IMG/VR virus record: IMGVR_UViG_2602041644_000001
Source: a virus
Lineage: Duplodnaviria; Heunggongvirae; Uroviricota; Caudoviricetes
Strand: one strand, 5' to 3'
DNA length: 31,107 nt
The notes under the pieces are model-generated. The model made no database searches and had not been told where the DNA came from. It saw nothing but the letters and a program-made list of their open reading frames with translations. The translations under genes and the position numbers were made by a program. Shown piece after piece: positions 3,726 through 9,410 of the stretch; the first letter of the stretch is position 1, and every line of letters starts with the position of its first letter.

Positions 3726-4721
3726 GTGACCGTGAGAGCACTACTGACCCCTGAAATTGCCCCGCGTATGGGGATCGTATTGTTCAGGCCAGGTTCAGAG
3801 CTGATGCCCCTGTTTATGCAGGGGCGTGTCCTGCTGGAGCCTGAGCCGGAGCGTTATTCATCTTTCGCCAGTGGTGCCGTTCCGGCGGCATCACAACCGC
3901 TGGCGGATGATCCTGCCGTTCGGGCCGTGTTCCGCAATGAGGCAGTGATCCGTCGTGCTGGTGGCGTGGAATGTCTTGAAAGCTGGTTACTTCGTGAAAA
4001 AGGCTGCCAGTGGCCTCATTCCGACTGGCACAGCGAGAACATGACCACAATGCGACACGCGCCGGGCGCAATCCGTCTGTGCTGGCACTGCGATAACCAG
4101 CTGCGCGATCAGTTCACGGAACGGCTGGAATCAATGGCAACGGATAACTGTGTCCGGTGGGTGTTATCTGTCGTGCGTCGGGATCTCGGTTTTGATGACA
4201 GTCACGTTGTGACAATGCCGGAACTGTGCTGGTGGCTGATTCGTAATGATCTGGCGGATGCCTTACCGGAAAGTGCAGCCCGTAAGGCACTGAGATTACC
4301 GAAGCCTGTTGTGCCGTCTGTTACCCGGGAAAGTGACCTTGTGCCTTCGGTTCCTGCCACCAGCATCATCCAGGATAAGGCGAAAAAGGTGCTGGCGCTG
4401 AAAGTGGATCCGGAGTCGCCGGAGTCTTTTATGTTACGCCCAAAACGTCGCCGCTGGGTTAATGAAAAGTACACGCGCTGGGTTAAGACACAGCCGTGTG
4501 CATGTTGTGGAAAGCCTGCTGATGATCCCCACCACCTGATAGGCCACGGTCAGGGGGGAATGGGTACAAAAGCGCATGACCTCTTTGTGTTGCCTTTGTG
4601 CAGAAAGCATCACGACGAGTTGCATGCGGATACCGTGGCATTTGAAGAGATGTATGGCTCCCAGCTGGAGCTGATATTTCGTTTTATCGATCGTGCGCTG
4701 GCAATAGGCGTACTGGCGTAA
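3726..4721 (+). CDS. DUF968-like protein (YdfU-like) with C-terminal Cys/His metal-binding motif
   Basis: C-terminus CACCGKPADDPHHLIGHG...HDLFVLPLCRKHHDELH. Sits next to the Q-like gene as ydfU does in Qin. Start uncertain (GTG at 3726; ATG at 3768 possible). Confidence 0.6.
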   Translation: MTVRALLTPEIAPRMGIVLFRPGSELMPLFMQGRVLLEPEPERYSSFASGAVPAASQPLADDPAVRAVFRNEAVIRRAGGVECLESWLLREKGCQWPHSDWHSENMTTMRHAPGAIRLCWHCDNQLRDQFTERLESMATDNCVRWVLSVVRRDLGFDDSHVVTMPELCWWLIRNDLADALPESAARKALRLPKPVVPSVTRESDLVPSVPATSIIQDKAKKVLALKVDPESPESFMLRPKRRRWVNEKYTRWVKTQPCACCGKPADDPHHLIGHGQGGMGTKAHDLFVLPLCRKHHDELHADTVAFEEMYGSQLELIFRFIDRALAIGVLA

Positions 4722-4734
4722 GTGGAGAACGAGC

Positions 4735-5487
4735 ATGAACCTTGAAGCCTTACCGAAATATTACTCCCCAAAATCTCCAAAATTGAGCGATGACGCACCG
4801 GCGACAGGCTCTGGTGGTTTAACAATTACGGATGTAATGGCTGCGCAGGGGATGGTGCAGTCGAAAGCACCGCTTGGGTTTGCCTTATTCCTGGCAAAAG
4901 TTGGTGTTCAGGATCCTCAGTTTGCGATTGAAGGTCTGCTCAATTACGCGATGGCACTGGATAACCCGACATTGAACAAATTGAGTGAAGAAACCCGGCT
5001 ACAGATCATTCCTTACCTTGTGAATTTTGCCTTTGCTGATTATTCCAGGTCTGCGGCAAGTAAGGCTCGCTGTGAGCATTGTGCTGGTACTGGATTTCAT
5101 GATGTATTGCGCGAGGTGGTGAAACACTCCAGAAGCGGGGAATCTGTTATCAAGGAAGAGTGGGTGAAGGAACTGTGTCAGCATTGTCATGGTAAGGGAG
5201 AAGTCAGCACAGCGTGCAGAGGGTGTAAGGGTAAAGGTATTGTCCTGGATGAAAAAAGAACCCGGCTTCATGGCACGCCTGTTTATAAGGTTTGTGGGCG
5301 TTGCAATGGAAACCGGTTTAGCCGTTTACCAACCACACTGGCGCGGCTTCATGTCCAGAAGCTGGTACCAGACCTGACGGATTATCAGTGGTACAAAGGA
5401 TATGCAGATGTCATTGATAAACTGGTTACAAAGTGCTGGCAGGAAGAAGCGTATGCTGAGACACAATTGAGGAAAGTGACGAGATGA
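4735..5487 (+). CDS. Putative late-gene antiterminator Q (QuuQ-like, four CxxCxGxG zinc-finger repeats)
   Basis: 250 aa with CEHCAGTG, CQHCHGKG, CRGCKGKG, CGRCNGNRF repeats. Immediately upstream of a strong promoter and intrinsic terminator, and of the lysis cassette. Confidence 0.6.
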   Translation: MNLEALPKYYSPKSPKLSDDAPATGSGGLTITDVMAAQGMVQSKAPLGFALFLAKVGVQDPQFAIEGLLNYAMALDNPTLNKLSEETRLQIIPYLVNFAFADYSRSAASKARCEHCAGTGFHDVLREVVKHSRSGESVIKEEWVKELCQHCHGKGEVSTACRGCKGKGIVLDEKRTRLHGTPVYKVCGRCNGNRFSRLPTTLARLHVQKLVPDLTDYQWYKGYADVIDKLVTKCWQEEAYAETQLRKVTR

Positions 5488-5518: not shown

Positions 5519-5547
5519 TTGCATTTTTCAAAAAAAATGGATAATAT
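5519..5547 (+). promoter_or_regulatory. Putative late promoter (pR'-like)
   Basis: TTGCAT (5519-5524), 17-nt spacer, TAATAT (5542-5547), directly downstream of the Q-like gene. Confidence 0.5.
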
Positions 5548-5593
5548 TATCTCAATGATAGGCATTGTGTGTCCGGCTTTAATAAAAAGTAGA

Positions 5594-5620
5594 AAACCCG
5601 CTGATGTGCGGGTTTTTTTT
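5594..5620 (+). terminator. Intrinsic terminator (tR'-like)
   Basis: Hairpin CCCGC-TGATGT-GCGGG followed by T8. Confidence 0.7.
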
Positions 5621-5698
5621 CGGAATTTTAGATGTGTGGCATTGAAATGGTATTCGGCGAGTAGGTAGAATTTAAACTTTCGTCTCGTCTGGATCGAC

Positions 5699-6241
5699 AT
5701 GATGTTTCAAGCCTTCCAAACAGCAGTATTTAAAAATGTTGCAGAGTATTTAAAAGGGCGCTTCCCTCATAAGTCGTTAGGGCTCGTATATGCCGACGAG
5801 CTGGTACTAAAAGATATGGAGTTCCTCAAGGCTAACAATAAACTGCGGTGGGATCCCGGACTAAAGTCGCGAGTGTTTATGGATATGATGGAAGAACACC
5901 CGATAAAACTAGTTGTTTATTATCGTGGGGAGCCTATTGGATTTGCATTTGGGTGTTACTGTAAGCCGAAAAATGCGGTGCATATTTGCTGGATGGAAAA
6001 ACGTAATGATGCACATGAAGACCTAGACCATCAGATGCTTGGTATCGTTTTGGATTGCTTCTCTGCATATGCACGATTTCTGAACCTTCAGGGTGAATCT
6101 ATTGATTCGATAGCTTTAGTTAGTCCAGTTGATGGGGCAATAAGATACTATACTGAAAGTGGTTTTGAGTACATTGCTGATTACGAACGAGGTGGTTGCG
6201 CAATGGTGCTTAGGAGCGTTTTACCTAACCAATCAGTGTGA
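5699..6241 (+). CDS. Cargo protein, possible GNAT-like acetyltransferase fold
   Basis: 180-aa ORF in a visibly AT-rich island. Segment MLGIVLDCFSAYARFL...AIRYYTESGFEY loosely fits GNAT motifs A/B. No confident family assignment. Confidence 0.5.
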   Translation: MMFQAFQTAVFKNVAEYLKGRFPHKSLGLVYADELVLKDMEFLKANNKLRWDPGLKSRVFMDMMEEHPIKLVVYYRGEPIGFAFGCYCKPKNAVHICWMEKRNDAHEDLDHQMLGIVLDCFSAYARFLNLQGESIDSIALVSPVDGAIRYYTESGFEYIADYERGGCAMVLRSVLPNQSV

Positions 6242-6432
6242 GTTAGATTCTTAATTTCTCCAGAATCATTACAAAAGTATTGAAAACCTCTTTTAGTTGA
6301 TGCAATCTGGATCCACACAAAGCACACACAAAATGTACTACGCTTTACTTTATACATCTTCAGGTAACAAACTTTGTTGCCTTTATGCTTCAAAGAAGCA
6401 ACTACAGCTTAGTGCTGAACAAGGGGATTTTT

Positions 6433-6618
6433 ATGAAACATCATGAGCAGATAGAGATTGAGGCAGCTAAAGTCGTCGCCGAACTCTTTGCTGGCAATGC
6501 ATCTCCAATGGAAACCTTTGGTATTACATGGAGTCAAACTCAGATGTTAGAGCGTAAGAATCCTGGTGTAGTGATCAAACTAGTACCGGATGACGGTAAA
6601 AAACTTGCGTATTGCTGA
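6433..6618 (+). CDS. Small hypothetical protein (61 aa)
   Basis: ATG at 6433 with AAGGGGA RBS. AT-rich context, followed by an intrinsic terminator. Confidence 0.45.
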   Translation: MKHHEQIEIEAAKVVAELFAGNASPMETFGITWSQTQMLERKNPGVVIKLVPDDGKKLAYC

Positions 6619-6676
6619 TAATTTTTAAAGATTTTTTCAGCTAGAGAATCGATTATTTTACTATAAATCGCGAAGG

Positions 6677-6705
6677 AGCCCCACATATTGTGGGGCTTTT
6701 TGTTT
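6677..6705 (+). terminator. Intrinsic terminator
   Basis: Hairpin AGCCCCA-CATATT-GTGGGGCT followed by a T-run. Confidence 0.6.
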
Positions 6706-6875
6706 CATCTTAGTTAGCCGTTATTCACATTCACTACTTTGCTACTTATCCACTGTAAAAATAAATTGTGAATTATTTTGTGGCTTATTGTTAGTGTTCT
6801 ATCAATTTTGTGTGTGATATTCCATTGGCGTGGTTATTATCTGTGCATCGCACTTAAATGTATAAAGCTCACTAG

Positions 6876-7190
6876 TTGAGACAATCCTACCACCAGTTGG
6901 TGGTATCTCATGATTCACTGAATTGCAAATCTTCTGAATTGCTGGATGAGTTTAAATCTCACCGGCGCTATTTCTCCGTATCAGTCTCCGTGCCTTATAC
7001 CGATGTCAGGACGCATAAGCCCGTTCAGTTCTACCCGGGTAAACATCCGTGCGAGAAACCGGCGGATATGCTCAGGCAAATAATCAATGCCAGTAGTCGA
7101 CCTGGTGATCTGGTTGCTGATTTCTTTATGGGATTCGGTTCCACAATAAAAGCAGCAATGGCGCTGGGGCGTCGGGCGTTAGGTGTTTAA
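6876..7190 (+). pseudogene. C-terminal remnant of an N6/N4 DNA methyltransferase
   Basis: Only the C-terminal AdoMet-binding part is present (HPCEKPADMLRQII, DFFMGFGST ~ HPTxKP / FxGxG). The N-terminal ~35 codons are unrelated and there is no DPPY motif. Coding status of the remnant unknown. Confidence 0.6.
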
Positions 7191-7326
7191 CTTGAGTCAG
7201 AGCGGTTTAATCAGACGGTGAAAGAGGTAAGTGAACTGGTGGGGAAATAATTCTGGTGGCCACGTTGCGTGGCCTTTTTATTTCCAACACAGCACCCGCA
7301 AATATCGCGAGGTGAGAGATGACGAA

Positions 7327-7653
7327 ATGCCTCATAACCCAAATACCTGGCTGGACTTGGTCCAGAGCTGGTGGCGTGGAGACACACCGCTGGGTGCAGT
7401 GATTATGTCGATCGTTATGGCTGGTTTGCGCATCGCCTATTTTGGCGGTGGTGGTGGCTGGAAGCGAAAAACGCTCGAAATTCTACTCTGTGGCGCTCTG
7501 ACGCTGACTTTTGCATCCGCTCTTGAGTATGTCGGATGGCCTAAATCACTTTCTGTTGCCATTGGTGGTGGGGTGGGGCTGATCGGTGTCGATGCTATTC
7601 GTGGGGCTGCAATGCGAGTAATCGGTAACAAATTTGGTGGCTCTAAGGAGTAA
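7327..7653 (+). CDS. Class I holin (lambda S-like, three TMDs)
   Basis: Three predicted hydrophobic helices and a charged C-terminus, immediately upstream of the R lysozyme. ATG at 7327 chosen (RBS GAGGTGAGAG) over the longer 7231 ORF. Confidence 0.8.
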   Translation: MPHNPNTWLDLVQSWWRGDTPLGAVIMSIVMAGLRIAYFGGGGGWKRKTLEILLCGALTLTFASALEYVGWPKSLSVAIGGGVGLIGVDAIRGAAMRVIGNKFGGSKE

Positions 7654-8509: not shown

Positions 8510-8642
8510 TACACCTGTACCGTTTATACCCAACCCACTGACGTATGGTGCAAGTCTTGATTTGAATGTAAGTTTGTTATCCGCGTTGGCTCAATGTAAT
8601 AGGGATAAGTCAGATATCAGAATCATTGATAATCAAAATTGA
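8394..8642 (+). CDS. Rz1-like outer-membrane lipoprotein spanin (o-spanin), overlapped type
   Basis: +1 frame relative to Rz. Lipobox LLTGC after a hydrophobic signal, proline-rich mature region. Extends 133 nt past the Rz stop. Confidence 0.7.
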   Translation: MMIVLYALCLLPLLTGCGSTRTVYVSIPKTPLPVSLTSDTPVPFIPNPLTYGASLDLNVSLLSALAQCNRDKSDIRIIDNQN

Positions 8643-8846
8643 TGTATATTTTTATCGTCATGTAGATAACGAACAAGGTATTCCTCTGATACGTATTCGT
8701 TGAATACAGGTCATGGGTAGGCATTGCAATATCGCTTCGAAATTATCTGTGATAATGCTCTTAATTTTGAATGTATGTATTTGGGAAAAGAGATAAAGTA
8801 ATAGTCTAATTAATGGAGATATCCACAAAACACAAAAGGGACTATT

Positions 8847-9353
8847 ATGAGACCAGATCAATTTTTCTATCCAGATACTTTTACCTTTAATTCATCCACC
8901 TATTATGGTCAACGTGACTCATCTAAAGGCCGATTGTATATTCCTATTGAAAGTGACTTATGCCCATTTAATATCGGCGATATCATTGTGCAAAAAATGG
9001 TCGACAGGGAAAGACTATTTGAAGTGCTTGATTACGAGGTGCAAATTAGTCTCGAGGTTGGTTGCCCTGGCTACTCACATTTGGCGGTATTGATAGTGAA
9101 GGCATTGGATGTAAAAGAGAAGCCGAAGCAGATTACGACCCATTTGACGTTTAACGGTGCTATTAATGCTGGTGGTGATTTTCAAGCCGGTAATGATAAT
9201 TCGATCACAAAGAATATAACCATTCAACAACTACATGATGCTATAGAGCATTGCAATGATCCAGAGGTTAAAAGCCTTTGGCAAAAGCTATTGGAAAATC
9301 CGACGTTTGCTTCAATTGCTTCAATATTGGCAAAAAGTGCTTTAGGACAGTAA
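8847..9353 (+). CDS. Hypothetical cargo protein (168 aa), no recognisable family
   Basis: AT-rich island between the lysis and packaging modules. RBS AAAAGGGA, own AT-rich upstream region and own intrinsic terminator. Confidence 0.6.
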   Translation: MRPDQFFYPDTFTFNSSTYYGQRDSSKGRLYIPIESDLCPFNIGDIIVQKMVDRERLFEVLDYEVQISLEVGCPGYSHLAVLIVKALDVKEKPKQITTHLTFNGAINAGGDFQAGNDNSITKNITIQQLHDAIEHCNDPEVKSLWQKLLENPTFASIASILAKSALGQ

Positions 9354-9361
9354 TTCATCAA

Positions 9362-9386
9362 GCCCCATTCAATATGGGGTTTTTAT
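9362..9386 (+). terminator. Intrinsic terminator
   Basis: Hairpin CCCCAT-TCAAT-ATGGGG followed by TTTTTAT. Confidence 0.6.
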
Positions 9387-9410
9387 GCTTATTACAAAGA
9401 GTTTTCTTCA

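Follow-up and report, generated by a model that had tools for sequence, protein, structure and literature searches.

An open reading frame with a TTG start and 104 amino acids, located at positions 6876-7190 of a lambdoid prophage, resembles the C-terminal part of a DNA methyltransferase and raises the question of how the remainder of the gene was lost. A sequence-only reading of the window, i.e. the whole stretch of 31,107 nucleotides analyzed here, had placed the break at a palindrome and regarded it as a fossil insertion boundary, left by the acquisition of the cargo genes located upstream.

The late operon and the 3' methylase remnant

The window is a complete-looking SfV/e14-like prophage at icd, and 25 kb of it are 100% identical to a prophage in a human E. 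coli isolate. The start of its late operon comprises a DUF968 gene (3726-4721), the Q antiterminator gene (4735-5487, + strand; PF03589, E 8e-53; antitermination protein in the RefSeq copies), a tR'-like intrinsic terminator (5593-5616, + strand), two small ORFs, ORF 6876-7190, a further intrinsic terminator (7258-7284, + strand) and the genes for a Lambda-family holin (7327-7653, + strand; PF05106 and RefSeq annotation), lysozyme and Rz. Q and the holin gene form the left and right anchors of an exchangeable slot, the left edge of which is the tR'-like terminator. This terminator was located by alignment with SfV and mEp460 and follows the leader of the late promoter, and the homology to both phages stops just past it. 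The hairpin was scored by the terminator scan on the minus strand only; its plus-strand reading is based on the T run in the sequence and on the terminator annotated at the equivalent position in SfV. The terminator between methylase and holin was identified by scan, SfV annotation and alignment and is conserved in SfV. The order in intact relatives is Q, tR' terminator, a small exchangeable cassette (orf47 in SfV), a 350-aa methylase, terminator and holin. The intact gene of 1053 nt (350 aa) occupies the same place in SfV (orf48), mEp460 (gp53), cdtI and E. coli strain CP8-3, and it is present in about 1143 of 5426 complete E. coli genomes (~21%). The suggestion that relatives lacking the cargo might carry an intact methylase was thus borne out by SfV, mEp460, cdtI and these E. 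coli genomes.

Some further features of the region were observed. The leader between the Q gene and tR' (5521-5618) gave a sub-threshold Rfam match to isrK (18.9 bits versus a gathering score of 50), which would fit a lambda 6S-like late leader transcript; all Rfam matches were below threshold. The holin gene of an O157:H7 copy (L001 8728-9063) is 9 nt longer, in-frame, than that of the window. A second low-GC insertion (8510-9400, 32-44% GC) lies between Rz and the HNH/terminase genes; its ORF 8847-9353 encodes a 168-aa protein of phrog_5789, a gene that SfV does not have at this place. A separate phage N-6-adenine methyltransferase gene, apparently intact, is located in the early-right operon (1533-2186, by offset from L030 8533-9186). 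Thus, the phage still has another methylase after the loss of the late-operon one.

ORF 6876-7190 matches PF01555 (N6_N4_Mtase) with 65.8 bits, above the gathering score of 26.7, and the match is limited to profile positions 156-209 of 221, the C-terminal quarter. It aligns to residues 227-350 of the 350 residues of the SfV orf48 methylase with 90% identity; no part beyond these residues was detectable by tblastn of the orf48 protein against the window. The stop codon of the ORF (7188-7190) is a nonsense change, GAA>TAA, and the original frame runs on past 7190 to the ancestral stop at 7248-7250. The 3' remnant that includes this ORF ends at 7250 (6889-7250, + strand; gene nt 692-1053); over 362 nt it shares 97% identity with CP8-3, the closest intact E. 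coli allele, and ~95% with SfV. In motif I (FxGxG) the window harbors FFMGFGST versus FFMGSGST in the intact protein, a change that costs the serine but leaves the glycines in place. The complete frame of ~350 aa is absent: a 544-nt internal deletion, loss of the start codon and the in-frame TAA at 7188 interrupt it. This is in line with the earlier description of a non-functional N6/N4 DNA methyltransferase remnant, recognizable by its C-terminal part, in which the FxGxG motif for AdoMet binding lies. The DNA methyltransferase gene found in the late operon of SfV/e14-like lambdoid prophages is represented here by a dead copy, and RefSeq (PGAP) already lists exactly ORF 6876-7190 as a DNA methyltransferase pseudogene, "incomplete; missing N-terminus".

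Relative to the closest intact allele, the 3' remnant carries 2 synonymous and 9 non-synonymous changes, corresponding to a pN/pS of 1.39 (0.12-0.37 between intact alleles), and these substitutions look neutral. The changes L>H, W>R and GSG>GFG in motif I are shared by the window lineage and strain 1409, and the nonsense change GAA>TAA occurs in the lineages of the window and of O157:H7; in some lineages the frame is open to the ancestral stop. That open frame, together with the occurrence of the truncated ORF in 98 E. coli genomes and in the inducible phage vB_EcoM-689R6, whose annotation lists it as a CDS, could be taken to indicate a conserved functional small protein, e.g. an AdoMet-binding fragment or a regulator. 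However, the ORF has no ATG start, no ribosome-binding sequence was seen upstream of its TTG or GTG starts, and it is called a pseudogene by PGAP. Its pN/pS of about 1.4, the missing motif I serine and the nonsense codon in two lineages also argue against a function, and recombination (see below) explains why the distal part resembles intact alleles. A functional small protein is therefore hardly credible, and the 3' remnant is probably not functional.

The decayed 5' relic and the deletion junction

The flank to the left of the palindrome had been regarded as unrelated to the methylase. Local alignment contradicts this, as positions 6752-6886 (+ strand) correspond to gene nt 10-145 (codons 4-48) with a score of 71, compared to 22.2 +/- 2.6 (maximum 34) in shuffles and a highest score of 29 in controls with real window sequence. 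An nhmmer profile built from five diverse intact genes gave a marginal match (E 0.13) in which window positions 6752-6886 are colinear with gene nt 10-145. Relative to the SfV allele, 91 of 139 alignment columns are identical (65%); in an earlier ungapped comparison left of the palindrome, 14 of 28 positions matched. The relic has lost its start codon, contains in-frame stops and reads ICASHL in place of TDPPYF (codons 34-39 of the intact gene), and a DPPYF-coding pattern was found in none of the loci that share the junction. Its GC content is 32% versus 43% in SfV, with 23 GC>AT versus 9 AT>GC changes. Homology further upstream than gene nt 10 was not significant. Derivation from a distant AT-rich methylase homologue was rejected, since the SfV/mEp460 allele is the best match and distant alleles score lower; a sensitive blastn search of the relic against phages returned nothing closer than SfV/mEp460. 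Convergent AT-rich noise was excluded by the shuffles and the real-sequence controls. A 33-aa hydrophobic ORF with a TTG start (6778-6879) lies within the relic and is most likely a by-product of AT-biased decay. Thus, ORF 6876-7190 is real and matches PF01555, but the view of an unrelated left flank has to be given up in light of the decayed 5' relic.

Homology to intact genes begins at gene nt 692 in megablast and at nt 684 in blastn. As a relic of nt 10-145 is present to the left, the apparent junction represents an internal deletion of nt 146-689. Its 544 nt have been lost between imperfect direct repeats, CTGGGACAATC at nt 135-145 and CTGGAACAACC at nt 679-689, which agree at 9 of 11 positions in the mEp460 allele and at 8 of 11 in SfV; among random position pairs in the methylase gene, a 9/11 match occurs with a frequency of 1.9e-4. 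The junction itself consists of the two bases CT at 6887-6888 (+ strand), which match neither parent segment. Judged from these alignments, the site is a deletion scar inside the methylase and not a fossil insertion boundary, as the breakpoint is internal to the gene and has the decayed 5' relic on its left. Alignment with intact methylases, which had been proposed for locating the breakpoint, did so, but the expected coincidence with the cargo boundary was not observed.

A deletion between short repeats followed by decay, with no causal part for the cargo insertion, is the likely explanation of the locus. The deletion would have been made by illegitimate recombination or replication slippage between the short imperfect direct repeats. 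The two partners may have lain in a single genome, or one may have been an old decayed copy and the other an intact copy carried by another phage. The event would have taken out the target-recognition region and shifted the frame. The leftover pieces would then have decayed without selection, the isolated 135-bp 5' relic diverging strongly and turning AT-rich, whereas the 3' piece may have been held near intact alleles by repeated overwriting through homologous recombination with intact methylases of other prophages. Such overwriting would also exchange the downstream lysis cassette. The imperfection of the repeats and the two junction bases that fit neither side argue against the deletion model, and a pre-deletion ancestor, i.e. 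the same cargo allele beside an intact SfV-type methylase, was not found.

Cargo and 5' relic together make up the block 5615-6889, which was detected, invariably at full length, in 98 of 5426 E. coli genomes and one induced phage; neither the E. coli genomes nor the phage collection contain the cargo with any other junction. Direct inspection verified this junction in 18 block-bearing loci, 13 IMG/VR contigs among them. Wherever this cargo allele was found (98 E. coli genomes, 13 loci from IMG/VR and 4 from metagenomes), it comes with the mutated palindrome. Since the mutated palindrome is shared throughout and the junction by all 18 loci inspected, the sequences point to a single deletion event.

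Divergence from intact alleles amounts to ~35% in the 5' relic, 9% over the initial 56 nt of the 3' piece and 1.6-3% in the rest. A step of this kind at the junction is unexpected under in-place deletion and uniform decay. It calls for either later refreshment by recombination as far as the junction, or a junction that was made from a relic already old and a fresh intact gene, as by unequal crossover. Within 56 nt to the right of the junction there are five SNPs that occur in none of the intact alleles aligned; the closest intact E. coli allele is at most 97.3% identical, so that the full set of five cannot be present in any of them. Cargo, junction and these first five SNPs are common to the window and the lineages AR216 and 2-331, but the latter contain an mEp460-like allele right of about 6932-6961, and their lysis cassette is of the phage-21 type (essD, rrrD; L006 and L007, locus 3762-5380) instead of the lambda type. 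This allele switch within the remnant indicates that homologous recombination inside the pseudogene occurs and swaps the downstream module. The 3' remnant was thus probably kept similar to intact alleles by recombination, whereas the isolated 5' relic could not be refreshed.

The cargo cassette, the palindrome and Chi

The cargo cassette (5617-6701, + strand) was delimited by the ORF list and consensus scans and consists of two genes with a predicted promoter and terminator. It contains a promoter-like site at 5642-5671 (10/12 consensus match), ORFs of 180 aa (5699-6241) and 61 aa (6433-6618), and a terminator-like site at 6673-6701 found by consensus scan. Its GC content is 32-43% versus ~50% in the flanks. 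The two proteins belong to phrog_11949 and phrog_11292, both families of unknown function in PHROGs, and profile searches against Pfam, NCBIfam and PDB gave no match; a single-sequence AlphaFold model of the cargo protein reached a pLDDT of 44. A GNAT-like motif pattern, seen by eye in the 180-aa protein, is a candidate only. One genome per bacterial species was scanned for the origin of the cargo, with the 180-aa protein as first query and a 4-sequence profile as second, without a match. SfV and mEp460 lack the cargo and hold orf47 and gp51 plus gp52, respectively, in the slot. In mEp460 (L002 about 1140-1960), the gp51 cassette lies between two copies of the tR' terminator (AACCCGCC..GAGCGGGTTTTT). 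This duplication suggests that the tR' terminator is a recombination site for cassette exchange in the slot.

The edge of the cargo lies at about 6702-6751, near the former methylase start, and not at 6889. The cargo therefore is located upstream of the breakpoint, as had been stated, but does not abut it, because its end is ~140-190 bp away and the gap holds the relic. In the metagenome contig L038, ORF61 is followed by an intact 350-aa methylase, holin and lysin (endolysin), and this methylase keeps DPPY, FFMGSGST and a perfect palindrome. A second contig, L035, shows the same arrangement of cargo beside methylase, with the contig running out near the 3' end of the methylase gene. Three other cargo-bearing contigs (L026, L028, L029) contain no methylase according to alignment and a DPPYF-motif search. 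Diverged copies of the cassette, with 72-91% protein identity, are located between a Q-type terminator and lysis genes, and neither the alignment nor the motif search showed a methylase there. The configurations of the cargo in public data are three: with intact, with deleted and with no methylase.

The presence of the cargo beside an intact methylase in L038 implies that cargo gain and methylase loss were separate events, which contradicts the claim that cargo acquisition destroyed the 5' half of the gene. A single recombination or deletion event that brought the cargo and removed this half, with the palindrome as insertion boundary, would agree with the inseparability of cargo and remnant in E. 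coli (98/98) and with the position, 1 nt left of the palindrome, at which clear homology to intact genes sets in. It is nevertheless highly improbable, as the methylase's own 5' end (nt 10-145) lies between cargo terminator and palindrome, the cargo edge is not at the palindrome, intact or nearly complete methylases accompany the cargo in L038 and L035, and the palindrome already occurs in intact genes.

The palindrome, CCACCAGTTGGTGG, was described as a perfect one of 14 bp at 6888-6901. It is located at 6890-6903 as read from the sequence, and in the window it is imperfect: its reverse complement is CCACCAACTGGTGG, with 6-nt arms around a 2-nt spacer. Repeats of this 6+2+6 type number 12 in the window versus 7.6 +/- 2.8 in shuffles, and the hairpin is weak (-5.4 kcal/mol, z -1.7). 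A role as structural signal was rejected on the basis of the non-significant hairpin energy and this chance-level count. A break inside the palindrome, by restriction at CAGCTG or hairpin cleavage, was likewise rejected, as both arms are fully retained. The perfect form, CCACCAGCTGGTGG, was found in 5 of 7 intact alleles examined, where it codes for HHQLV (His-His-Gln-Leu-Val). It thus belongs to the methylase gene and is native coding sequence of the intact gene instead of a mark of the junction; by chance, this ordinary coding sequence would have come to lie 3 nt right of the deletion end.

CCACCAGCTGGTGG carries the Chi octamer (5'-GCTGGTGG-3') on both strands at gene nt 693-706. Chi occurs on both strands in the intact alleles SfV, mEp460, CP8-3, 2017.15, Eeyore, L035 and L038. 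The window palindrome contains no exact Chi octamer; it reads GTTGGTGG on the plus strand and ACTGGTGG on the minus strand, one C>T change having abolished both sites. Elsewhere in the window, Chi is located at 1556, 2808, 3957, 4228, 7367, 7871, 9168, 12251, 12607 and 18545 on the plus strand and at 1912 and 4357 on the minus strand.

The Chi pair offers another explanation for the right end of the deletion: after a break in the methylase, rightward RecBCD resection would have stopped at the minus-strand Chi (CCACCAGC), and microhomology joining would have followed. The presence of both Chi sites in 5 of the 7 intact alleles examined fits this idea, as does the position of the deletion end 3-4 nt 3' of the minus-strand Chi, which is the only one between the DUF968 gene and holin in SfV. 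The phage is also Chi-rich, with 12 sites in 31 kb versus 1.3 expected (~9-fold), 10 on the plus and 2 on the minus strand, in agreement with a class of phages lacking a Rec module (PMC12315714). Properly oriented Chi shields linear DNA from RecBCD in vivo (PMC3240628), which makes a Chi-set end possible in principle. However, the idea is post hoc, and by our own estimate an end would fall beside some Chi flank of the dispensable 1580 bp with a chance of ~4%. The 9/11 direct repeat accounts for the endpoint without Chi, the left endpoint has no Chi, and no independent truncations at the same Chi were found among the matches listed. RecBCD cuts 4-6 nt 3' of Chi. Such a cut would strip most of the right-hand repeat from the protected strand. 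Resection limited by Chi is thus an unlikely cause of the right end, and the short-repeat deletion is preferred. A stronger form, that the perfect CCACCAGCTGGTGG is a selected back-to-back Chi pair stopping RecBCD from either side in Chi-dependent Rec-less lambdoid phages and that its minus-strand Chi fixed the right end, is very doubtful. If true, the scar would be a natural record of Chi-limited resection and subsequent microhomology joining. The word "palindrome" is absent from the text of PMC12315714, and no role for Chi in deletion endpoints was seen there.

Meaning and comparison with known systems

The locus is an ordinary decaying prophage methyltransferase pseudogene that was already flagged as such in RefSeq. 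It is a worked example of the evolution of the Q-to-holin slot in SfV/e14-like prophages and carries little weight alone. In this slot, small cassettes are swapped at gene boundaries and a dispensable late gene would die via a short-repeat deletion, while its surviving 3' fragment may serve as a homology patch for the exchange of whole lysis cassettes between prophages. The locus also calls for caution in annotation: a remnant labeled "missing N-terminus" can conceal a decayed 5' relic, so that an apparent junction need not be the boundary of an insertion. Of wider relevance is the palindromic double Chi in a common prophage gene (~21% of complete E. coli genomes), which could interest the field of Chi-dependent phage growth.

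Morons, a concept of Hendrix and colleagues, are promoter-gene-terminator cassettes inserted between lambdoid phage genes. The cargo resembles them in its low GC content, its promoter-like and terminator-like sites and its location in a slot that holds other small genes in relatives. An own promoter and terminator, atypical composition and absence from the corresponding site of close relatives were all found for the cargo, the promoter and terminator being consensus matches only.

Deletions between short direct repeats arise by slipped mispairing or short-homology illegitimate recombination, as in the classic lacI deletion spectra. Like these, the methylase deletion has its endpoints in 11-nt repeats, matching at 9 of 11 positions, of which one copy was retained. 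In contrast to lacI-type deletions, the methylase repeats are imperfect, two bases at the junction have no explanation, and one flank is far more diverged than the other.

Lambdoid phages that are rich in Chi and lack a recombination module were defined as a class by Zheng, Casjens, Davidson, Amundsen and Smith in 2025 (PMC12315714), with at least 8 Chi in active and at most 6 in inactive orientation; the corresponding numbers in the window are 10 and 2. As in this class, the 10 sites have the orientation that acts on RecBCD when it enters at the right, cos-proximal end, and the 2 are oriented oppositely. A further trait of the class is the lack of a recombination module or RecBCD inhibitor in the early left operon; for the full prophage, RefSeq names int, xis, yfdR, yfdQ and yfdP but has no entry called exo, bet, gam or recET. 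Phage LLS, treated in the same paper, has a 73% identical homologue of the late-operon methylase. The window differs from the class in that the Chi pair at its palindrome is already mutated.

The closest counterparts in the lambdoid late operon are the beta-class adenine methylases (PF01555) SfV orf48, mEp460 gp53 and that of cdtI. Like these, the remnant of the window is located between Q and holin and is followed by the same terminator. Unlike the SfV-type methylase, it lacks nt 146-689, the start codon and DPPY, its 5' part shows only 65% identity, motif I is altered and a nonsense codon interrupts the frame.
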